A stretch of 64,000 nucleotides of DNA, taken from contig NC_086097.1 of NCBI RefSeq assembly GCF_963921235.1, positions 162,814,001 through 162,878,000 of the forward strand. The letters are read 5' to 3'. Position numbers and translations under genes: made by a program. Shown in pieces: positions 17,715 to 61,720 of the stretch (the stretch's first letter is position 1; each line of letters opens with the position of its first letter). The notes beneath the pieces were generated by a model, which was not told where the DNA came from, did no database searches, and worked only from the letters and a program-made list of their open reading frames with translations. The DNA is from Mobula hypostoma (taxonomy: Eukaryota).

Positions 17715-19266
17715 CAGGTGTCCCCCGCTTTTCGAACGTTTGCTTCACGAAACCTCACTGTTACGAAAGACCTACATTAGTACCCTGCTTTCGCTTTCAG
17801 AAGGTGTTTTCACTGTTACGAAAAAAGAATTCAGTGCACGATAAAAGGCAGCGCACCCTGAGCAGCCGCTCTGCCCCAGATTCGGAATGGCATTGCTTAA
17901 ACACATTGCATTGAGCAGCCGTTAGCAAGATGAGTTCTAAGGTGTCGGAAAAGCCTGAAAGAGTAAGGGTGTTACACTTAGCGTAAAACTAGACATAATT
18001 AAGTGTTTCGATCGTGGCGAACGAAGCAAGGACAAAGTGAGTTTGGCTTGTGGAAGTTGATGAAGATGATGTTGAAGAGGTTTTGGCATCCCATGACCAA
18101 GAACTGATAGATGAAGAGCTGATGCAATTGGAAGAGGAAAGGATAACAATCGAAACCAAATGCAGAAAGTGAAACAACTGCATGAGATTTTCGCTGCAGC
18201 GATAAAGTATGACTTTAATTTTGAAAGGGTACGTAGGTTTAGGGGATATTTGCAGGATGGTTTGAGTGCTTACAAACAACTGTATGATAGAAAAATGCGC
18301 GAGGCTCAGCAGTCAAGCAAACCTTCCACATCAGCCACAGCAGACAACGAACCTCAACCTTCGACATCGAGGCAGGCAGTCATAGGAGAAGATGAGCTGC
18401 CTGCACTGATCAACGACGAGATGACACCCCCCGTGTCCCACCACCCCAACACCTGGGCCCCGGACAGATACTGCACCGATTCGCGAAGAATGCAGCAGTA
18501 GCCGGGAGACACACAGCACATCTTTAAGAAAAAAGCCGAAATAAACATGCTAATTAATTAGGTGCCGCCTAGCACGTAATTGTCGGCCCAGATCAGAGGC
18601 GGTGCAATCGGCAATCGTCTCTGATCTGCGCCGATATTTACGTGCCGGGCAGCACCTAATTAATTAGCATGTTTATTTCAGCTTTTTTTCTTAACAATGT
18701 GCTGTGTGCCTCCCGGCTACCACTGTGTTCTTCGTGGCAATGTATCGGGTCAGCGGCCCGGAGGGTGGGGGCCACTGCACCACCCAACCTGTGACGACTC
18801 AGTCTAACACACCATCATCAGTGTGCTCGGTGCTGTTTTCCCAATTCCGGTAAGTGATACTACACTGTACATACATTATTTTTACTTTATATAGGCTGTG
18901 TATTTTTACATGTTATTTGGTAGATTTGGTAGCTTCATAGTTTAACGGCTACTGGAGAGCGCGTCTATGCCAACAGCGCTTGCGTGAGATTTTCTGCCGA
19001 CAGCGCTTGCGTGAGATTTTCGCTACGGAGATCTGTGCAGGCAATCATTGTAGAGAAGTATTTCTACTTTATGTAGGCTGTGTATTTATCATATCATTCC
19101 TGCTTATGTGTTATTTGGCATGATTTGGTAGGTTATTTTTGGGTTTGCGAACGCTCACAAAATTTTCCCATAAAAATAAATGGTAATTGCTTCTTCGCTT
19201 TACGACATTTCAGCTTACGAACCATTTCATAGGAATGCTCTACCTTCTGATGGCGGGGGAAACCTG
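17715..19266 (+). mobile_element. Internally deleted Tigger/pogo-like DNA transposon
   Basis: TA-CAGGTGTCCCCCGC ... GCGGGGGAAACCTG-TA. Transposase remnants LSVKLDIIKCFDRGE (N-terminal HTH) and acidic EVDEDDVEEVLASHDQELIDEELMQLEEE (C-terminal). Confidence 0.88.
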
Positions 19267-31109: not shown

Positions 31110-32768
31110 GGGGAACCTGACAGGCCTGTTTCCAGAAGGCATTCAATAAGCTGCTACATAAAAGATCTATCCATAAGATAATGATGCACAGAGTTGGGAA
31201 TAATGTATTAGCGTAGATAGAGGATTGGTTAACTAATAGAAAGCAGAGAGTTGGAATACATGGGTGTTACTCTGGTTGGCAATTAGGGGTGAACGGTGTG
31301 CCACAGAGGTCAGTGCTGGGCCTGCAAATGTTCATGGTATACATTAACAATCTGGAAGAGGGGACCGAGTATCTAAGTTTGCTGATGATACTAAATGGAG
31401 TGGAAATGCAAATTGTGCTGAAGATACAGAGTCTACAAACAGATATAGATAGGTTAAGTGAGAGGGCAAGGGTCTGGCAGATGGAGTACAATATTGGTAA
31501 ATGCGAGGTCATCCACTTTGTAAGGGAAAATATAAGAGCAGATTATTATTTAAATGGTAAAAAATTGCAGCATGCTGCTGTGCAGAGGGACTTGGGAGTG
31601 CTTGTGTATGAATCACAAAAGGTTGGTTTGCAGACGCAGCAGGCTAATGAGAAAGCAAATGGAATGTTGGCCTTCATTGCTAGAGGGATTGAATTTAAGA
31701 GCAGGGAGGTTATGCTAAAAACTGTACAGGGTATAGGTGAGGCTGCACCCGGAGTACTGCGTGCAGTTCTGGTCTCCTCACTTGAGGAATGACATACTGG
31801 CTTTGGAAGTGATGCAGAGGAGGTTCACCAGGTTGATTCCAGAGATGAAGGGGTTAGGATATGAGGAGAAATTGAGTTGCCTGGGATAGTACTCGCCAGA
31901 ATTCAGAAAAATGAAGAGATCTTATAGAAACATAAAATTATGAAAGGGATAGATAAGATAGAGGTAGGAAGGTTGTTTCCACTGGTAGGTGAGACTAGAA
32001 CTATGGACATAGCACCAAGATTTGGGGGGAGTATATCTAGGATGGAGATGAGGAGGAACCGCTTTTCCCAGAGAAAGGTGAATCTGTGGAATTCTCTGCC
32101 CAATGAAGCCATGGAGGCTACATCAATAAATACAAGTGATGATTGATAAGTTCGTGGCCTAAGGTAGGCGGAGTCAATTTTAGAAAACCTAGCATATTTA
32201 TTTTTCCTACATTTACACACTTAGTCCAGTGGTCGTGAAGCATACAGATCCCTTCTTTGGTGAAGTCGGCATCTTGGACCTCAGAAGTGGTCCACAGCAG
32301 GGGTGATTGATAAGTTTGTGGCCTGAGGTAGAAGGAGATGAGTTATTAACTTCAAACTTTCTGCATTTTCACTCAAAGGGTGAACTGCACGTGCATGTAA
32401 TGAGAGCTGTATAACTCATCTCCTTCTACCTTAGGCCACGACCCTATGAATCACCCCTGCTGTGGACCACCTGGAGGTCCAAGACGCCCTTGTTACATGC
32501 ACGTGCAGTTCAACTCTTTGAGTGATAATGCAGTAAGTTTGAAGTTAATAACTCATCTTCTACCTTAGGCCACGAACTTATCAATCACCCCTCGTATATT
32601 GAGGCCAAGGTTGGATAGATTTTTGCATAGTAGGAGATTTAAGGGTTATGGGTAAAAGGTAGGTAGGTGGAGATGAGTCCATGGCCAAATCAGACATGAT
32701 TTTATTAAATGGCAGAGCAGGCTCGACGACCCAGAAGGTCTACTGCTGCTCCTACTTCTTATGTTCTA
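31110..32768 (+). mobile_element. 5'-truncated CR1 LINE interrupted by a MITE
   Basis: ORF 31289-31792 (GVPQRSVLG, WQMEYNIGKCEVIHF, QRDLGVLV); 3' end resumes at 32597. A related 3' fragment lies at 33270-33567. Confidence 0.9.
32133..32594. mobile_element. Tc1/mariner-like MITE
   Basis: TA flanks; TIR TGATTGATAAGTTCGTGGCCTAAGGTAG at both ends; right end reads TACGAGGGG on the minus strand. Host CR1 is restored if removed (compare 33380-33410). Confidence 0.85.
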
Positions 32769-38543: not shown

Positions 38544-39791
38544 CTATCACCCAAATTACAATATGCAAATTGTTGAATTAAAGTGACTCATGGCAACCAG
38601 AAGCAAAAATATGCTTTTTTAAGGCAGGCAAATGGATTTATTTTCTCTTGTTCTCACTACGTGTAAAGCAGAGCACACCATACACTGAAAATCATTAAAG
38701 GTGTTTTCAAGGTGGAAATTGATCCAGGATAGAATATTCACCTACAACATTGATACGGTCATAAACATGGATCATTTTGCTTGTGCTATAGCATGACACT
38801 TTGAATTGCAATGGAAACTGTGGGCGGGCTTTTTTATGGATTCCACTGACTCAGGGCATGAAGACTTAACGAAGCAAAAGGCAAATAGCATTGGGATGCA
38901 GAACATCTATGGGCCAACTGAATGGCAGGGCAGACATTCCAGTCATTCTCTAATAGTTATAAGTAGTTGACCCACACTTCTGGATATGTCAGGACTGGAA
39001 GCAAGTTCCTTTTCCTCTGAAAGGTACAGCTCCTACTGTTTTCCAGTGATCCTGGAGGTTACCCTTCCATGCCAGCATGCAAGTCCTGTGGGAGGATCAG
39101 CCTAAGTTCTTGCTAGAAGAAGGGATAGAGAAAGATAAAAGTAAAAAAAAAATTGATGATGATGAAAATAGAGCAGGATGGAAATGCATGTGTGTAGTCC
39201 CAGCAATATTGTAGCCTGCCTCTGGGATCCATGAGGACTGCAGAGGTACAGAAAACTGCTGAGCTAGCCTTCTTAGCGGAGGCAAGAATTCCACATTTCA
39301 CAGGGTTTGTACCCAGCTTTCACAGGATACGTGGGGAAATCTGGGACTTTCAATGGCTGAATGTTAGCAGCTCTGACTGTCGCTTTCAGCAGTTGCCAGC
39401 AACATCCAACTCAAGATTTGTTGAAGTAAGATCACTAAAGGATGACCATATGAACCCATCTCAAGAACTGCCACAATACCTATTTTCCCAAATCATAGTA
39501 ACTAGAGAAAATTAAAATAAAAGAAGTTTTTTTCTCCCCTGGGAAGTAATATAGACTGACGCCACATTATATCATTACTGAACACACCATGGTCTCGGCC
39601 TGAAACATCGACTGTACCTCTTCCTAGAGATGCTGCCTGGCCTGCTGCGTTCACCAGCAACTTTGATGTGTGTTGCTTGAATTTCCAGCATCTGCAGAAT
39701 TCCTGTTGTTTGCATCTTCAAAGACTTTTTGGTACTTAAGCAATTAATAATTAGTATCATGACTATGTGGCACGAAGGAACATCAACTTGC

Positions 39792-39925
39792 CTGGCAGCA
39801 TGAATTCTGTACCACTTGTTGGTGTTAATCTGAAGATCAGGATATTCTAATCTTGCTGTTCCTGAACCCACGTCCCACAAGAAGGCGACTCTGCCCCGAC
39901 GCATTTCCAGAGCCAAGAATTCAGA
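39792..39925 (-). CDS. LAMA1: Laminin alpha-1 exon, LG1 (GC donor)
   Basis: 134 nt encoding SEFLALEMRRGRVAFLWDVGSGTARLEYPDLQINTNKWYRIHAA(R). Donor is AG|GCAAGT. Confidence 0.93.
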
Positions 39926-42900
39926 CTGTGAAATGGTGCAGAGGGCAATTGATTAACATATTTTTGGTCTTAGTTAGCAAAAGAAATGCTCAAGAGTAAT
40001 GAATAAACAATCAGGTATCTTCATGTTGTACCGAAAACCTTTAAGAGTCTGCATAAAAAAACATGCTGCCTGACGTTGAAAATGGCTAGGACTTCCTTCG
40101 AAACTAAAGTAGATGACTAAAAAAATGAACAAATACATATTTCAAGCTGATAAAAAACTTAAGCTGTTGCAATTGAAATACAAGTCCTGTTTCAGGCATA
40201 CACAATGACAACATTAAACATAATCATATTTAGAAAGGCTTCATTCTACCCTGGAGGTGTTCCTATTACAAAACTGTATTTCAATTTCCACAACAAACAA
40301 TCATCCTCACCATAGATTTTGAGATTGCTCAAAATATCACAGCAGGGGGCTGGATAGAATATCTGTGACATATAGTGCCTTGCTGGTTATTTTTGAATGC
40401 TTGAGAATTAATCTGTGATTACAATCTGGCCAATTTCTGCATCATTTCCATTAATGGACTAATAGTTCCTTTAAAAGCAATTTTTTAATACACTGTATGT
40501 AAGTAGATTCTCTTTGAGAATTTCTACTGCTTTTCACCAAGTTATTTTGAACTAATTAAATTAGTAATCAAATTTCCACTGAACTTATCCCTTCTGCCAT
40601 ATCCTTCTATTTCCTCCACATTCATGTGTCTAGCTAAGAGCCCTCTGAATGAATGCCTTTTTCCCTTCTCTGCCACCCCAAGCAGCAAATTCCACGCACC
40701 CAGTTCTCATGTGTAAAAACTTGTCCCACGTATCTTTGAATTTACCCCCTCACCTTAAATGCATGCCCACTGATAATAAACACTTCAACTCTGGGGACAA
40801 GGAACAGGTCATCTACTCCGTCTATGGCTTTCATAATTTTATAAATCAGTAATAGTTTTCCCCTCGCTCTCTGTTGTTCCAGAGAAAAACTTCTTTCACT
40901 CCAACCAATTGTGCCCACAATCCATGGCTATATTCTAATGTAAGAAATGAAAGCAGAAGAAAGACTTCTCTCCTGCCCTTTGTGCCTGCCCTGCCATTTA
41001 TCAAGATTGTGACTGATCTTCCTCAATTCAATCTTCTTCAACCACCCCCATATTCAAGGTTCATTCAACATACACAGATCTTTTTACTTCTGTTTGGAAT
41101 GGATTCTACCACTGAGGCCCTGGAGCTTCCCAGGTAGAGAATTACAAAGATTCACCACCTTCTGAGTGAAGAGACCTATCTGCATCTCAGTCCTAAATTG
41201 TCTACCCCTTACTCTTGGGCTGTGAGCCCCAGGTGACTCCCTATCCAGTGCAAATATATCCTCCATGTTGCCACCTTGTTAAGCTCTAAAAGAATTTTGT
41301 TTCTATGAACTTTCATCCCATTCTTCCAAACTCTGTGGAGAATGAAGCAACCTCCCCTCAGACAGCAAGCTCAGCAGCATTTGAAATCTAAGGGCCCTTT
41401 TCATGACTGGCACATCTTTATCTATGTAATAGACCAGAATTGTGCACAGTGCTCCAGGTGCAGCCTTGGCAAGACCCTGAAGAACTAGAGCAATACTTCT
41501 TTACTCTGCATTACCATTATAAAGTCTAGCATACTATTTGCCCTTCTGATCACCTGCTGTATCTGCTTGGCCTTCAGCAACTTACAAGTATCAATCATTC
41601 AACATTTAAAGCAAAAGCTGCTTTTCTATTTTGTGCAGCAAAGTGGGTGGCTTCAAATTATGACACATTATATTCCATCATCTCATCTTCATCCATTCTT
41701 TCACCTTGTCTACATCCTTTTGAACTGTCTTTACTCAGAATCTCACCTGCTTTAGAACCATCAGCGTTCTGGGAAATACAACATCTGAACCTCTGGGATC
41801 AAGTCCAAGCAAAGACCATTCAGTAATCCAATAGTCACAGCCTGCTACCCTGAGAAAGACCTGTTATTCCCACTTTTTACTTTCTGCCCATAACCAGTTC
41901 AATTCATATCAGTACATTACCTACAATTCTACATTTTCAAAAGATTTCTGAAAATCTAAACACATCACATCTACTGATTCCTCTTAGTCCAATTTGTCCA
42001 CCGACACAACGGGTCAACAGCTGATCCCATCTCATTGGCTCTTCACTCAACTCTAGAATATCTGGACAGCAAAGGTGCATACATCAGGATGCTCTTTATC
42101 AACTAAGCTCAGCATTCAATACTATCATTCTTCAATTCTAATCAATAAGCTTCAAAACCTCCTTGGGCAATTGGATCATTGATTTCTCACTTGGAGACCC
42201 CAGTTAGTTTGGATTGGCAACAACATCTCCTTCACAATCTTCATCAGCACAGGTGCACCACAAGGCTGTGTTTAGCTCCCATTCCTTCTTTAGGTTTGCT
42301 GACGACACCACTGTTGTAGGCCGAATCAAAGGTGGTGACAAATCAGCATTGAAAATCTGGCTGATTAATTTTGGCTGATAACAACCTACAAAGTTACATA
42401 AATAATATTGACAACCCATGGGTGAAATGGACTCTTAAAATATGGAAAACTATATAAAAGAATATAAACTGGAGAAAGACATTGCAATTCTTAATTGGTG
42501 TGCATATAACTCGGATTTTACGCCGAATAAATTGGATGCTAGATTTAAGGACTGGACAGCTAAAGGAAAAAGTTATTTGCAATATAATGAAAGAAGGAAC
42601 ACTGTTCAGTTTTGAAGTGCTCAAAGAGAAACACTTATTAGAAAAACAAGACTTTTACCGGTATTTACAGATGCAACAGTATGTTAATAGGACCGTTAAA
42701 AATGTAACCAAGGCAAGTACATGTCTGATAGAGCTATTTAGAAAAGCATATAATTCAGATAACGGTAGTAGAATAATTTCAAGTGTGTATAAGGGTTTGT
42801 CAAATCTTAAAATACATTCGACTTCATACATTAAAACAAAATGGGAGAAGGAAGGAGGGATAATAACATCTGAGGAAGACTGGACAATAATATGGAGGTA

Positions 42901-43397
42901 TCAATGGAAGTGTACCAGGTCACCGAAATGGAGGGAGTTCGGGTGGAAAAACTTGATAAGATATTTTATTAAACCCTCTCAGAAATCCCATTATGATAGT
43001 AACCCCCCTGTTTGCTGGAGAAATTGTGGAAATCAAAATGCAAACCATTATCATATTTTCTGAGAATGCCCCGTTATCAAAGACTATTGGAGTGGGAAAC
43101 ATAATGCCCTACAAGACATCTTTAAATGTGAAATACTCTTAGAGAGTAAGACCATATACTTTGGGTATATACCTCAAGAATGGTTGAAAAGAGATAAATA
43201 TTTACTGTATGTACTGCTGGTGGTTGGTAAAAAGACCCTTACCAGGAAATGGTTATCACAGAAGAGCCCAACTTTAAATGTATGAATGGAAATTACAATG
43301 GACATTTATAAAATGGAGAAGATAACAGCATCTGTTAATCATAAGTTGGAACAATTTTATTCATACTGGAAAAAAAGGTTTAACTACATAACACATC

Positions 43398-43437
43398 ATA
43401 GTCCTGACGAAGGGTCTCGGCCTGAAACGTCGACTGT
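43398..43437 (+). ncRNA. Minimal type I hammerhead ribozyme motif in a Penelope-like terminal repeat
   Basis: ATAGTC-CTGACGA-AGG(GTCTCGG)CCT-GAAA-C-GTC-GACTGT: stem I, complete core, stem II, loopless palindromic stem III (ACGT), GUC cleavage triplet. Confidence 0.75.
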
Positions 43438-43532
43438 ACCTCTTCCTAGAGATGCTGCCTGGCCTGCTGCGTTCACCAGCAACTTTGATGTGTGTTGCTT
43501 GAATTTCCAGCATCTGCAGAATTCCTGTTGTT
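43401..43532 (+). mobile_element. Short Penelope-like terminal-repeat insert
   Basis: Hammerhead motif followed by GATGCTGCCTGGCCTGCTG..TTCCAGCATCTGCAG. Related copies at 39591-39710, 56596-56692, 61430-61647, 62830-62905, and degenerate ones near 19905-20070, 20990-21090, 22980-23140, 29480-29655, 51255-51515. Confidence 0.75.
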
Positions 43533-46330
43533 AACACCTCATAGGCCTGATTTTATTCTCACAAGTCAATGAATATGTTGTAAAAAAAAGAATCACTCCC
43601 TACTCTGTACATAGTTTTCTTCTTTCGATTGTTCTTTCTTTCCTCTCTTTTCTATAAGTGTATACCTCAGATAATTACGTGGAGATTTGTGACAAATATG
43701 TTTATATGATAGATATGTACAATGATGAAATTCAATAAAAATAAATTACAAAACAGAAAATCTGGCTGATTAGTGCCACAAATACAGCCTCTTACTCAAT
43801 GTCAGGACCAAGGAGAGGACTACTGACCTCAGAAAGTCCATAAATCAGTCCTCAGAGGATCAGAGGTAGAGGGAGTCAGTAACTTTAAAATCCTTGGTGT
43901 TATTATTTCAGAGAACATGGCCTGGGCCCAGCACACAAGTACAATTACGAAGAAAGCATGGTGGTGCCTCTACTTCCTTAGGAGTTTGTGAAGGTTCGAC
44001 ATGACATTTAAAACTTTAACTCCTATAGATGTGCGGTGGAAAGTATATTGACTGGCTGCTTCACAGCCTGATATAGAAAGGCTAATGTTTTTGAAGAGAA
44101 AATCCTACAAAAAGTAGTGGATATGGCCCAGTCCATCATGGGTAAAGCCTTCCCCACCATTGAGTACATCTACATGGAGTGCTGTTGCAGGAAAGCAGCA
44201 TATATGATCAGGGACCCCCGCCACCCAGGTTATACTCTCTTTTCACTGCTGCCATCAGGAAGGTGGTACAGGAGCTTCAGGAGTACATCAATGTTTAAAG
44301 ATCGTTATCATCCCTCAACCATCAGGCTCTTAAACCAGAGAGGATAACTTCACTCAACTTTAATTGTTCCCACAACCTACGGTCTCACTTCCAAGTACTC
44401 TTTATCTCATGTTCTCAATATTCATTGCTTATTTATTATTGTTACTATTCCTTTTCTTTCTTTTTGTATTTGCAGTTCCTTGTCTTTTGCACACTTGTTT
44501 GTCAGCCCTGTTGGTCTGGTCTTTCACTGATTCTATTATACTATTGGACATATTGAGTATGCCTGCAAGAAAATGGATCTTAGGGCTTTATATGGTGACA
44601 TAATGGACTTTGATAATAAATTGACTTTGAACTTAAGTCTATTCTAAGAACTCAAAGAACTCTAGAAGTCCAATTAAACATTACCTTTTCTTAATTCCGT
44701 GTTGGCTTTTCTTAATCATGGTATTCTTTTAAAAATGTTCTGTTATTACACCTTTGTTATGGATCACAGTGATATCCCTACTACTGATGTTATACTAATG
44801 GATCTGTAGGTTTTTCTCTCATTCTCCTTTCTTAAATAATAGTCATATTTGCTGCCCTCCAATCCCCAAACGTTCTAGTATCTACAGAATTTTGGAAGAT
44901 GATATCCATGAGTGCTACTGATGTGCAAGCAAATTAATATAAAAATGATTTAAAATAAATGTAGATTATTAACATTCTCCATAAAAATGATTATTAATTA
45001 ACTGCACACTTCATTAAGGATATCTTATTAATTATTATGAATGGTCTCACACCTGGTCTTCAGTCCATCCCAAATGACCCATGAACACTACATCACTATT
45101 CTGCTCTCTTTTTGCACTATTCATTTATTTTTAATATATTTCTTATTGAAACTTACAGCAATATTTTATGTATTTCACTGCACTACTGCCGCAAAACGTA
45201 TTTCACAACATACATCAGTGATATTAAACCTGATTTTGATTCCAGTTCTGATTTTACCGCCAGTCGGTTAATCAGCGTTCTAACAAAGGAAATGCAGCAG
45301 CTAATTTACACACAATGAGCTCCCACAAAAGAAAGGAGCAACTAATCTGTTCTGGAAAAGACTGAGGGATAAATATTGGTCAAATTGGCTCACCCTGGTT
45401 ATTCTCACCCATCTGAGAGGATAGACCCCGCCTCAGTTTAACCTCTTCCAGAGGATAGTACCTTCGACACTAAAGTGTAAGCTGAAATTTTTGTGCAGAA
45501 GACACTATAATGGTATCTTCTGACTTACAAACTATTGACCCACCCTGGGCCTCAACAATTACAAAGAAGTCACACTAGCAGCTCTACTTCATTAGAAGTT
45601 TGAGGAGATTTGGTATGTCACCAAAGCCTTTAGCCAATTTCTACAAATGCATGGTGGAGAGCATTCTGACTGGTCGCATCACCGCCTGGTATACAGGCTT
45701 CACGCAAAGGGGATCGAAAGAGGCTGAAGAGGGTTGTAGCCTCAGCCAGCTCCATCATGAGTACAAGCCATCAAGGATATCTTCCAAGAGTGGTGTCTTA
45801 AGAAAGGAGCATCCAGTATTAAGGACCCTCACAATCCAAGACATGCTCTCTTTTCATTACTACCATCAAGGGCGAAGTACATGACTCTGAAGTCCTACAC
45901 TCAGTTTTAGGAACAGCTTCTTCCCTTCTGCCACCTGATTTGTGAATGGGCCATGAACCCATGAACCTCAATATTCCTCTTTTGAACTATTCCTTTTATT
46001 TCTTACTGTAACTTGTAATTGTAACTGTCTTACACGGTACTGCTGGCACAAAACAACAAATTTTATGACATTTCAGTGACGATAAACTTGACTCTGATTG
46101 TGCTTTAAGTATTTACCTTCCCATTCACATGGAAGTTGGAAATTTGGTTGGTAAACAATGATCTTTCATTTATTTGATTATTCAGTACATTAATTAAGTG
46201 CAGTTGATCAGTGATTGTAAAAAGGTAGTACATGAACCTTGGCTTCACTATATTAGCAACTTTTAGCCTCAGGACTTTAACCTCTGGATATCTCAGCAAG
46301 GTGCATCAGCGGCCCTAATGGGTTACTTAC

Positions 46331-46474
46331 ATTGCTACTGCTGCCTAGGTAGAACAGTAGGTTTTCTGTCTCAGAGGTTTTCACATTCAGGGTCAGAGTA
46401 TTGTAGTTGCTGCTCATGAGTGCAGGCTGGTAGGCACGGATACAATCTCGGTCAGCTGATACAGCCACTTTAAT
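46331..46474 (-). CDS. LAMA1: Laminin alpha-1 exon, IKVAV motif and start of LG1
   Basis: 144 nt encoding IKVAVSADRDCIRAYQPALMSSNYNTLTLNVKTSETENLLFYLGSSSN. IKVAV is characteristic of alpha-1 (alpha-2 has IKVSV). Confidence 0.97.
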
Positions 46475-50461: not shown

Positions 50462-51499
50462 AAACGGAGCTATCTTGCTCCAATTACAATGAGCTTCAGT
50501 GAAACTAAATTTGAAATACCATGCACAGCTCTGGTGTCCCTATTCAAGGAAAGTTATACCTGTGACAGAGGGAGTGCCTTAAGGATGATCAGATTTATTC
50601 CTGTTTGTCATTTTTAGAGAAGATGAAGTAGAATGAGCACACACTCTTGAATACAGCAGAATGAGAGACGATCAACTTGAAATACAGATATTCTTTCATC
50701 AGTTGGCACAGAGATGTGGGGTGTCTACAACAAAGGAATTGGCTCAGATAGTAAAAACAATTCTTTGCCTAGAGATTGTATCTTTGGAATTCTCCTGCTG
50801 AGCTCCAAAGCTCAGCTGCTGAATATATTCAAGACAGAGATGGTTAGATTTTTAGTCATTAAATAAATCATGGTATATGGGAACGACTACAGAAAGGTGG
50901 CACTGAGATTAAAATAAAAATCAGCCTTAATCTTGTTGAATTTTGGCTCACTTATGGAAATCCAAATGGCCTACTCTTAATTCTATTTTGTTTCTTCTTT
51001 TTAAATCTCAGGTTCACCTCTTCTACCAGTTGCTTGACAGTGTAATTCCCAATTTTACTCACTCCCTCACTGGTCTTGTTCCAGTGAAGATGAACTTTAA
51101 CTGAGGAACAGCATGTTCTCTTTATTCCTCCCATCTTTACATCGTGACCGCTGTGCCTTTCAATCTATTCTAGGCTCTGCCCTGTCACAATCATTTCCTT
51201 TTGTTCTCCCTCACCTCCTCCCTTTCTCTGTAACTTAAAAAAACTACTTCTCCCGGTTTTGAGGAAAGGTAAGGAACCTGAAAAATAAACTCCGCTTTCC
51301 TCTCTGTAGCATTTTGTTTTTACTTCACATTTCCACCAGTACAGTTTTTCTGGATTCCACCATAAACCAGTGAGCTCTGGTTCTCAATTCTTCTTCTGTC
51401 TATCCTGCGTAACCAGCCTGTTACTTTGAACATCACTATCACATCTCATTTCAGACGTATATAGGTAATACTTAAAACTTTCAGCAGGTCAGGCAGCAT

Positions 51500-52426
51500 C
51501 TATGGAGAGAGAAGAGCCAGTAACTCTTTGATCTGATCGACAGTCAGACTGGTTGCTGATGGAGTGAGTGACTGGGTGTCTGCTGTGACCATTGCCTGGG
51601 TTTTTCCCCTCCCTTTTGGACACTGTCTCCAGCTATGTCCCGACAGGCCACAGCTGTAGCATATCAACTCCTTCACTGCCTTATACCTGGTCCAGCAGTC
51701 CTCTGCTCGGTGCCCTGGCTGCTGGCAAGCAAAACAAGCCCTCCAGGACATCACAGCAGCTGCATCCACTATACCCACTTTACGATATCTCTTGCCTTTT
51801 CTTTGGTCTATCTCACTGGCCCATGAAACTATCTCAGAGTAGTTGGACCCTACCGTTATGCCTAAACCTAAAACTTCTTGGTGGGCTGAACTCAGACCTT
51901 CCTTCAGCATTTTCAGGAAGACTGGGTCATCCCTCCCTGGGTTATCCAACCCGGAATACTCCTCGTACATTCGGTATTTACATTCTGCGTAATCCATGGC
52001 TGTCTCGTCAGCCTTTTGAATCACTGCCATTATCATTCCCCAGCTACTCTCGCCTCCCCCCAGGCGCTGTTTCACTTCCCCTTTAAAAGAGCTATGCCTT
52101 TCTTCATTACTGGCGCTCCCAGTAGTTGCCCATGTACCATCCCGCATCCCCTGGTCCATTCTGTCCCACATATTCCTCGGGCACTTGGCTTTCACTAATA
52201 CATGTATACCTTTAGGGTGCATCTGGTGAATTTCAACCATTTCCTCAAGCTTACGCCAGAATTCTGAATTCCCACAGGCGACTTTAAGTGAGGGCAACTT
52301 GGACAAAACGCTCTGTCTCTCCCCAGGGGTGAAGGGCTTATGAATAGTCGTAATCAAGGTCAAGGGCTGGCTCGGATCGTCAGGGTTCTCAGAGTTAATG
52401 TTAATGCTTCTGATCATACTTTTCAT
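51500..52426 (-). CDS. Gag-like ORF (capsid-like region plus two CCHC zinc knuckles), LTR-retroelement derived
   Basis: ATG-initiated, 308 aa; CFACQQPGHRAEDC and CYSCGLSGHSWRQC (CX2CX4HX4C); MHR-like IQKADETAMDY. Expression unknown. Confidence 0.75.
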   Translation of the reverse strand: MKSMIRSININSENPDDPSQPLTLITTIHKPFTPGERQSVLSKLPSLKVACGNSEFWRKLEEMVEIHQMHPKGIHVLVKAKCPRNMWDRMDQGMRDGTWATTGSASNEERHSSFKGEVKQRLGGGESSWGMIMAVIQKADETAMDYAECKYRMYEEYSGLDNPGRDDPVFLKMLKEGLSSAHQEVLGLGITVGSNYSEIVSWASEIDQRKGKRYRKVGIVDAAAVMSWRACFACQQPGHRAEDCWTRYKAVKELICYSCGLSGHSWRQCPKGRGKTQAMVTADTQSLTPSATSLTVDQIKELLALLSP

Positions 52427-53361
52427 CAGAACAAGGAAAAGTTGTCAATCAGACATGGGGAGAAAGCCAAGGGATACAGAGAGCCAGAATATCTCTGTTA
52501 GGGTGAGAAGGGGAAGAGGCTGGGTGACATAAGTGGTGAACTGAATGATGTTTTGTTTCCTCTCTCTCCTCATTGGCCTCTCCCCTCGGTAGATCAATTG
52601 GGATGTACAAAATTTCACTATTTTCCATCAACAGAGAGTTCTGATACCTCTGTCTTATTCAGGTTCTGTGCAGGATGGGTGAGAAACACAGGAAATGGAA
52701 TAAACATGTACAGTTAGTTCCCCATCATCTTTGGTGGAAGAGAATCTCAATCTAAGAAAAAAAGTAAGTTATTTTGGAAGTCCTAATATGGAAGGCAATG
52801 TTGTCAGAAAAAATATAACCAAGGTGGGGAAACTGAAAGAACAGAGTAGAGTCTTTATAGGAAGCAGAACAGCAAGATGTCCAGTCAAGACAGTAGTCGG
52901 TGTTCGTGGAGTTGTCAGGAATTCTGACTCCAATTAATTCCTGCAATGGAAATGGAGGAGCAGAATTAGGGAGGAGTGAAAGGAAAGAGAAAGGTGGAAA
53001 CTGGTAGCTATTTTTCTCAAGTTTGTCTGTTCTAACCAAAACAATCACAGCTTCTCCAGCCTTGCCCCAAGCTTCCCAATCCCTTATTACCAAACATTTC
53101 TGGTAAGTGCCTTTTGCAGCCTGTCTAAAGGCTTCTTATCCTTCCTAAAGTGATCAAAGTGGACACCATGCCCCATTATGACTGTGGCCAAACCAGTGTT
53201 CTAATATTAAGGTACAAGCTTGGATGAACCAAGGACTGCCCAGTTAAAAAATACTTTTGAGTTTGTTTTCTACAAAACTTATATTAGTGCTTCTACTACT
53301 CATGTTTTGTTGACCAAAATATGACTATTTGCCAAAAATGAGGTTCAATATATGAACTTAC

Positions 53362-55489: not shown

Positions 55490-57651
55490 CTGGACAGATG
55501 AGAAAACCAAAACAAGTCGTCACATACAATACTAATGATATGGAAACAGGTCCTTCAGACCAGCAAGTCTATGCTGACCATCAAGTACCCATTACACTAA
55601 TCCAATACTATTTATTCTTCCCACACCTCCATCAGCTCCCTCAAGTCCTGCCACATCTCCGAGGACTAACTGGTTAATTAGCCACTGTAAATAAATATAG
55701 TCGCCAGTTAAATTACCATTTTGCCTATTTTTGTGATGTGGTGGGAAACAGGAGCACCTGGAGGAAATTCATACAGTCACGGAGAGAAGGTGTAAACTCC
55801 ACACAGACAGTACCCGAGGTCAAATTGAATCCAGATTACTGGAACTGTGAGGCAATAGCTCTATCAGCAGCCTCACTGAACCCATCCTTAAATCCAAGAA
55901 AATTTGTCTACTCATTGGTCAACAAAGGGTGTACATTCTTTTCGGACCTATAGAGAAACTTTAGGCCTTCCCTACCACGAGCTCCCCAATCCTGCTCACA
56001 CCCTGTGATAGTGCACACTCAGTTCAGTATCTTCAATCCTTGTCAGCAGCCTCTTGCCATTGCTGCCCACTAGCTGAGTAATTCATACCAGTGGGGCTGG
56101 GCAGAGGCTGATGAAGCCATGTAGAGGAAAACTTGACACAGCAACGAGCCAAGCATTTCTTGACATTTGGAATGCATATCTCACAGGCCATTTCACCCAT
56201 CTTTTCTCTACTACAGCTTTTATAAAATCATAGATTTTATACTCATCCATTTTGACCAAAGTACCTTTTGAGTTAGTCCTATTTGCCTGCACTAAATATG
56301 CCTCGATAAATATTTCCTATCCATGAACCTGACCCAAATGGCTTTTAAAAGTTGTAACCTTATCAGCTTCTACAGATTCCTCTGACAGCTCTTTCCACAA
56401 ACATCTGTGCAATAAAACTGCTTCTCAGTTTTCCTTTTAAATCTTTTTTCCCCTTCACCTTCAACCTATGTCCTCTAAAAGATCACTCCCTACCTCCTTC
56501 ATTCTAGCAAAAATAGTTCCAGCTTATCATGCTTCCTATGGCATGGTGACTGGAACTGTGCACAGTTTTTCAGGTCCAAGTACAGACTCATCAATGTCCT
56601 GACGAAGGGTCTCACCCTGAAACATCAATTGTTTATTCTTTTCCACAGATGCTGCCTGATCTGCTGAATTCCTCCAGCATTTTGTGTGCATCCATCAGTG
56701 TCTTGTACAGCTGTGACAAAGAGTTTTCAGTGCCTAGTCTGATAAAAGGTAAGTATACCATATGCCTTCTTTACCACCTGTCTACCTATATCAACACTTT
56801 CAGCTAACTATGTACTTGTAACTCTGTCTCTCAGTTCCACAACATCCCTAGAACCCTGTCTTTCACTGTATATATCCTGTCCTGATTTAGCTGCCTAAAA
56901 TGCATTACTTCCACTTGTCTGAGTTAAATTTAAAGCAAAGAAAACATGGCAGTGCCTCTATTTCCTTGGACGTTTGCAAAGATTTGGCATGACTTCAAAA
57001 ACTTTGACAAACTTCTACAGACGTGTGGTGGAGAGAATATTGACTGATAACATTATGGTCTATTACGGAACACCAAATCCCATAAATGGAAAATCATACA
57101 AAAAGTAGTGGATATGGTCCAGTCCATCACAGGTAAATACCTCCCACCATTGATCAGATCTACATGAAGCACTGTCACAGGAAAGAAGCATCCATCATTA
57201 AAGACCCCACACCCAGGCCATGCTCTCTTCTCAGTGCCACCATCCGGAAGAAGGTACAGGAGCCTCGGGACACACACCATCAGGTTCAGGAACAGATATT
57301 ACCCCTCAAACCATTAGGGTCTTGAACCAGAAGGGATAACTTCACATGCCCCATCACTGAACTGTTCCCACAACTATGGACTCACTTTCAAGAACTCTTC
57401 ATCCCATGTTCTCAATATTTATTGCCCACAAAAAAATGACTCTCAGGGTTGTATATGGTGACGTACACGTGTACTTTGATAATAAATTTAGTTTGAACCT
57501 TGAAATTCTATCTGCCATTCTTTTACCTATCTTCCAGCAAATCTAACTCTCCTGCTCTGTTCCCCATTGCCCAGCTATTATTTTTCTTCAGTCACTTCAA
57601 GTGTAAGTTGCTCAGATCAATATGAATTCTTAAATTGGACAAGTTATTCAC

Positions 57652-61331: not shown

Positions 61332-61720
61332 AAAGTAACTAAAGAAGCTGTAACCAAATCACAACACGTTTCTGATTATCCCATTTGTCACTTCAAAGAG
61401 AGAATAATTTTTAGTGCAAACATGAGAACATCTGCAGATTCTGAAAATCCAAAGCAATACACACATAAATGATGGAGGAACTCAGCAGGTCAAGCAGTAT
61501 CTATGGAAAAGAGTAAATGGTTGGCGTTTTGGGCAGAGACCCTTCATGTCCTGATGAAAGGTCTTGGCCCAAAACGTCGACTATTTACTCTTTTCCATAG
61601 ATACTGCCTGATCTGCTGAGTTCCTCCAGCCTTTATGTGTGTTGCTAAGAACGTTTATTGGCTGGTTTGGCCATCAGACTATGACCTGACTGAGCTAAAT
61701 CCAACACAGTAAATACTCAC

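Follow-up and report, generated by a model that had tools for sequence, protein, structure and literature searches.

The 64-kb window of Mobula hypostoma DNA analysed here contains a compact hammerhead ribozyme motif within an intron of LAMA1, and the question is whether this motif acts on the host gene or reached it with a mobile element. Very probably, it is a passenger and not a switch of LAMA1: it arrived with a short and recent retro-insertion of a Penelope-type repeat that is hugely amplified in a ray-like cartilaginous fish.

The hammerhead motif

The motif, a minimal type I hammerhead as judged from its letters, its fold, and comparison with a published alignment, occupies positions 43398–43437 of the plus strand. 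Its 5' half consists of ATAGTC (43398–43403), CTGACGA (43404–43410), and AGGGTCTCGGCCT (43411–43423); the 3' half is composed of GAAA (43424–43427), CGTC (43428–43431), and GACTGT (43432–43437). The CUGANGA and GAAA boxes of the core are present together with UH at the cut site, as in the minimal hammerhead ribozymes (min-HHRs) of Penelope-like elements (PLEs). Helix III is replaced by the loopless palindrome ACGT (43427–43430), and the predicted C17 is position 43431. All of these letters and coordinates, as well as the description of stem III as a palindrome lacking a loop, had been given in an earlier sequence-only reading and were confirmed when the sequence was read again.

The checks proposed by that reading included a motif descriptor and a search with Rfam hammerhead models. 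The descriptor, for a minimal type I hammerhead, required CUGANGA and GAAA boxes, a palindrome, and UH, with a minimum length of 4 bp for stem I and 3 bp for stem II, and it tolerated one additional base after CUGANGA. Its single match on both strands of the 64-kb window was the motif at 43398–43437, and it matched in one of 600 dinucleotide-preserving shuffles of the window. No Rfam hammerhead model matched the motif, either at gathering score in the whole window or at E values up to 10 in the region 42400–44400. This would be unsurprising for a motif almost devoid of helix III. Five weak Rfam matches to other families were treated as chance. Scans for the exact pattern of the motif yielded 0 loci in viral contigs and 0 in metagenome contigs.

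Helices and predicted folding

Stem I is formed by a 5' arm at 43399–43403 and a 3' arm at 43432–43436/7. It includes five element-encoded pairs and one pair that uses the host base A43398, so that the motif is closed by the short helix I seen in min-HHRs. The initially described 6-bp stem I was correct with regard to pairing and off by one in length, since its outermost pair recruits a base of the surrounding LINE.

Stem II follows the unpaired A43411 and is built of 43412–43415 and 43420–43423 (GGGU/GCCU) with a CUCG loop. An AGG/CCT register had been suggested for this stem, which is off by one: its pair probabilities are 0.01–0.02 versus 0.58–0.64 for the register with the unpaired A. Both fold and pair probabilities thus favour an unpaired base between A9 and position 10.1, as is characteristic of min-HHRs. 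Helix II opens with a G10.1•U11.1 pair. U11.1 is common to a sister copy in the window (see below) and is implied by Mobula protein P0034; its interpretation as private CpG decay was therefore rejected. In PMC4209133, the >80% consensus of min-HHRs has G-C at 10.1–11.1, and G•U occurs in the rows of Xenopus tropicalis(1), Latimeria(1), and Malawi cichlids.

The monomer is predicted to fold as a rod, in which GACG of the core is mispaired with CGUC, and the folding energy of the motif is unremarkable (z -1.43). Nearest-neighbour energies calculated with a model lacking Mg2+ and tertiary terms were -13.7 to -14.3 kcal/mol for the active double hammerhead, -24.8 for two mispaired monomers, and -33.1 for the inactive duplex. 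Compensatory changes were seen in 0 of 9 pairs across five copies in the window, four of which are decayed or truncated, a set too small and too degraded to be informative.

Position relative to LAMA1

The intron that holds the insertion (46330–39926, minus strand; 6,405 bp, GT-AG, phase 0) was delimited by translated comparison and by sequence. The exon upstream of it (46331–46474, minus strand), which encodes the end of domain II and the start of LG1, matched mouse laminin alpha-1 with an E value of 1.9e-19 versus 1.2e-10 for alpha-2. For the downstream exon (39792–39925, minus strand; LG1), these values were 4.4e-22 and 2.8e-18, respectively. The flanking exons carry Laminin_II and Laminin_G domains (Pfam). 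All LAMA1 matches, obtained with two named laminin alpha-1 proteins and one unnamed relative, are located on the minus strand and run in order from ~62758 to 1972. Laminin exons recognizable by their cysteine pattern were not found in the window, because it covers the coiled-coil and LG part of the gene. The exon 39925–39792 seems to end at a GC donor (AG/GCAAGT; 39791–39790, minus strand) instead of GT.

The motif and LAMA1 lie on opposite strands (plus and minus, respectively), and CUGANGA is missing from the minus strand of the insertion. The LAMA1 pre-mRNA therefore carries only the non-catalytic complement, and the copy at 43399–43531 does nothing to LAMA1 RNA. The location in a LAMA1 intron had been recognized correctly, while the antisense orientation, which removes the reason for linking the motif with LAMA1, had been missed. 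The catalytic strand is thus absent from the host pre-mRNA, unlike the conserved intronic hammerheads of amniotes, which are present in sense orientation in the pre-mRNAs of their own host genes. On its minus strand, the insertion also has an ATG together with a site resembling a splice donor at 43439 (43439–43512). In LAMA1, this donor would be of phase 2 and the next acceptor is of phase 0, so that the reading frame would not be kept after a cryptic first exon.

Insertion boundaries and host sequence

A 133-bp retro-insertion (43399–43531, plus strand) has the motif at its 5' end; it resides in a decayed LINE and is bounded by a 10-bp target duplication. The insertion consists of the hammerhead and a tail of ~95 bp, represents a young subfamily of a very high-copy family, and is delimited by a step in depth, loose ends, and a skip joint. 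The left copy of the duplication (43389–43398), defined by alignment and by the joint from 43388 to 43532, supplies A43398 and is identical to the right copy (43532–43541) in 9 of 10 positions. In the alignment, the right copy is followed by host bases, up to 43550, that match the element start in 8 of 9 positions. Overall, 43389–43407 and 43532–43550 share 17 of 19 bases, which may be read as a target duplication of 10 bp, mismatched at one position, and an adjoining 8/9-base microhomology at the 5' junction; random pairs of 41-base zones reached 12/13 in 3 of 3000 trials.

Contig records of DNA run X1 place the boundaries at the same positions. In four contigs, position 43388 is joined directly to 43532, a skip of exactly 143 bases that would be expected of an empty site or a LINE paralogue. 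Among the loose ends listed for this run, the best-supported 5' ends are at 43399–43401 and the main 3' ends are at 43526 and 43532. In longer family members, T precedes position 43399, where a pyrimidine tract with a terminal CAG comes to its end (369 loose-end records, agreement 0.55). Mobula protein P0034, which contains the repeat read backwards, terminates with RTN where the window gives RTM. As A43398 is a host base, the element itself encodes a 5-bp stem I. T43437, the partner of A43398, is replaced by C in ~22% of the summed depth in run X1. Two other readings of the tetranucleotide ATCA at 43395–43398, as a remnant in inverted orientation or as a first exon joined by splicing, were rejected in favour of the target duplication.

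The target sequence after the duplication resembles the first bases of the element in two copies, that is 43399–43407 versus 43542–43550 (8/9) and 56589–56601 versus 56693–56705 (11/13 overall). This resemblance suggests that the 5' junction may form via annealing at the edge of stem I and the core.

The host sequence appears to be the 3' end of a decayed LINE on the plus strand (42458–43760; outer limits approximate), with a zf-RVT-like C-terminus, in-frame stops, and an A-rich end. A frame remnant extends over 42458–43060, and in-frame stops occur beyond it. Atlas features for this relic point to zf-RVT clusters at a low recognition score; a Pfam search of the relic found nothing. The LINE label for the host of the insertion is a weak one.

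Related copies and abundance of the family

Further copies of the family were revealed in the window by alignment. A sister copy (39591–39710, plus strand), located 3.8 kb from the motif, is 99% identical over 120 bp, is truncated from the 5' side inside stem II and thus lacks the core, and has A in place of G16.2. A copy from a related subfamily (56594–56690, plus strand) retains the core and has a broken palindrome and a broken 3' arm of stem I; it is flanked by a probable duplication (56589–56601/56693–56705, 11/13). An inverted-repeat search additionally revealed, at 61431–61646, two decayed copies of the related subfamily that are arranged head to head in inverted orientation and have lost G12. 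Shorter fragments of the family are present as well.

None of these is an intact partner for the motif in the 64-kb window. The sister copy and the copy at 56594, the two others that could be aligned and retain GAAA, were rejected as dimer partners, because G16.2 is replaced by A in both and the core is missing from the former. The original claim that self-cleavage demands pairing with a second copy agrees with the published model; what it did not recognize is that the window holds no such intact copy. All three copies that keep CUGANGA (43404, 56599, 61552) are antisense to LAMA1, a number too small for a test, and the sense-strand copies found in the window are fragments without the full core.

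Of 29,819,287 contig records in run X1, 110,535 align to a 451-bp stretch around the insertion. The summed depth is ~17.6–17.9 million on the element versus 0.07–0.33 million on the flanking LINE; this depth is not a copy number and supports only the statement that copies are very many. Each of G43429, C43431, and G43432 is retained in ~88–91% of the summed depth despite the CpG sites. Variant rows are absent for 43394–43428, probably because differences near alignment ends went uncounted, and the run is therefore silent on C7 and U11.1. Among raw reads, 15 of 10,085,944 in run X21 matched, all of them on the LINE part, and 0 of 8,710,588 in run X22 matched the 451-bp stretch. Run X15 is RNA by guess only and its contigs are unstranded; it says nothing on transcription.

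Six Mobula gene models (P0034–P0039) contain the translation of the repeat, three in each orientation, pointing to a ray-like host. They were retrieved by two protein searches with the frames of the repeat, each of which yielded three Mobula proteins, none with a reverse transcriptase (RT) or GIY-YIG domain; five are host-gene models and one is uncharacterised. The copy at 43399–43531, closed by its target duplication, likewise lacks an RT or GIY-YIG frame. The initial reading was right about the motif and overlooked that it belongs to a short, very high-copy insertion inside a LINE relic.

Comparison with known hammerhead systems

The published min-HHR consensus (PMC4209133) is CUGANGAH-G..-GAAAN-palindrome-NUH with a U-rich lead-in. 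By its sequence features, all of which are present, the motif is of this known kind, and the Penelope-type minimal type I form claimed for it at the outset equals that consensus. As in the min-HHRs of metazoan PLEs described there, CUGANGA is followed by an unpaired base and GAAA-C-G-U-C lacks loop 3. Also shared with the published cases are a short helix I, the U-rich lead-in, thousands of dispersed single copies, and pairs on opposite strands. The core letters of the motif at 43398 are those of the rows Ixodes scapularis(1) and Strongylocentrotus(1) in the same source. Helix II differs from the published forms in being short (4 bp, two of them G•U) and in closing with G•U. With regard to activity, no cleavage was reported for a min-HHR monomer and low cleavage for dimers (Cervera and De la Pena 2014, PMC4209133), in line with the dimer-only cleavage that had been proposed for this locus.

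Membership in the Penelope-like elements is inferred. The discrete ends of the 3' tail (43526, 43532) and the inverted copies at 61431–61646 are PLE-like traits, and the head-to-head pair fits the published opposite-strand pairs, which counts for a Penelope-type reading. Against it are the lack of a linked RT/GIY-YIG frame, the 0 of 9 compensatory pairs, and the G•U at 10.1–11.1. In Penelope of Drosophila virilis, the intron 3' end is at the 5' edge of helix I; here, longer family members show a pyrimidine tract with a final CAG directly ahead of stem I.

The Poseidon element PAc of Anolis carolinensis offers a further comparison (Frangieh et al. 2024, PMC11167929). As reported in this study, PAc RNA is cut 26 bases after an ATG inside the hammerhead core, and reverse transcription starts inside the RNA ~111–118 bases after this ATG. 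Cleavage of PAc needs protein, unprocessed RNA is the dominant template, and ribozyme mutants were without effect on insertion. Both elements have a cut ~25–26 bases past the ATG position (25 here, predicted), copies that span the cut site, and discrete 3' ends ~110–125 bases past the ATG position (125 here). They differ in that the young subfamily studied here has ACG at the ATG position and its frame closes after 31 codons; thus, no ORF starts at the ATG equivalent.

Non-LTR retrozymes, which by definition comprise at least two consecutive complete units, have been reported from one chondrichthyan genome, and PLE pLTRs have been proposed as their source (bioRxiv 10.64898/2026.07.22.740005). 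Like these elements, the family described here is non-coding, carries a type I hammerhead, is related to PLEs, and has dispersed monomers, which are common in introns. In contrast to their tandem units, the copy at 43399–43531 is solitary and bounded by a target duplication, and no consecutive units were found for it. The conserved intronic hammerheads of amniotes (RECK) are likewise of type I and located in an intron of a host gene; PMC6155905 describes them as conserved across species and proposes a role in mRNA biogenesis, whereas the motif in LAMA1 is antisense, recent, minimal, and multi-copy. Cartilaginous fish are not named in the supplement of PMC4209133 outside its file 1. A literature survey for hammerheads in sharks or rays found nothing on point; the supplements of the bioRxiv preprint and file 1 of PMC4209133 may list the family.

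Origin and possible activity

The insertion may have arisen as follows. A Penelope-like RT would have nicked the LINE relic and started to copy the element RNA ~100 bases 3' of the position of hammerhead cleavage, continuing through that position. Since the copy at 43399–43531 spans the cut site, its template would have been uncut or re-ligated there. Reverse transcription would have stopped at the 5' edge of stem I, and the cDNA end would have paired with a similar sequence in the target. Within the parent element, the probable role of the motif is that of the published min-HHRs, namely a weak, dimer- or protein-dependent cutter after C17. The present copy could be cut only if its plus strand were transcribed and paired with the RNA of another copy.

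One alternative is that the insertion is a monomer of a non-LTR retrozyme, in which tandem hammerheads excise a small circular RNA and a borrowed RT brings it back into the genome. The short, non-coding, high-copy unit with its type I hammerhead would suit such an origin, as would the record from one chondrichthyan genome and the proposed PLE pLTR source (bioRxiv 10.64898/2026.07.22.740005). Rare head-to-tail hammerhead joints in run X1 (43436 to 43400 and similar) point in the same direction, but their depth is ~20–180 versus ~18 million and they span only the hammerhead. The copy itself is not tandem, and the best-supported 5' loose ends are at 43399–43401, with none at the cut site 43432 among the loose ends listed. 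We consider this origin unlikely. Comparably improbable is that the motif is vestigial or a non-catalytic look-alike in this subfamily, which is kept only through copying of the whole tail or as part of an RT-binding fold. The modelled energy of the active double hammerhead, far above those of mispaired monomers and inactive duplex, would agree with this, but the model omits Mg2+ and tertiary terms. The G•U at 10.1–11.1 and the lack of covariation in five copies can be viewed likewise, although published members (PMC4209133) also have G•U there; the Anolis element inserts unaffected by ribozyme mutations (PMC11167929). Every core position is nevertheless present, and G43429, C43431, and G43432 are kept in most of the depth in spite of their CpG context.

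It is extremely improbable that the motif is an intronic ribozyme domesticated to regulate the processing of LAMA1, in the manner of the RECK hammerheads. Such hammerheads exist (PMC6155905), and the motif is the sole intact one in the window and lies within a LAMA1 intron; but it is antisense to LAMA1, belongs to a recent insertion whose target duplication is still intact and which has a nearly identical sister copy close by, and matches no Rfam hammerhead model. Unlikely, and a little more so than the retrozyme origin, is a broader reading based on the abundance of the family and its mostly retained core: RNAs from different loci might associate through stem I and the palindrome ACGU and cleave one another in trans, so that sense intronic copies would be harmful and antisense ones would remain. 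The antisense orientation of the three core-keeping copies in the window fits this reading, but they are far too few. A strand bias that appears across the genome only among intact cores would indirectly argue that min-HHRs cut host RNA in vivo.

For the preferred reading, a passenger retro-insertion of Penelope type, the single copy is of little consequence, its motif class having been known since 2014 and LAMA1 RNA being beyond its reach as a substrate. The family has more to offer than the copy at 43399–43531, as a very large, young set of near-identical vertebrate min-HHRs would lend itself to statistical tests of in vivo cutting, such as strand bias in introns and 5' ends at the cut site.

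Other repetitive features

Joints in run X1 that lead from 43428–43450 back to 43399–43401 indicate rare head-to-tail, hammerhead-only repeats of ~35–38 bases elsewhere in that DNA; these would be natural cis-dimers. An open frame of 314 codons that encodes zinc knuckles (Pfam zf-CCHC), gag-like or ORF1-like, is located in a LAMA1 intron (51503–52444, minus strand) and ends beside a fragment of the hammerhead family (~51480–51506). Long, close inverted repeats at 18484–18734 and 32287–32561, 86–92% complementary, look like small foldback or MITE-type insertions.
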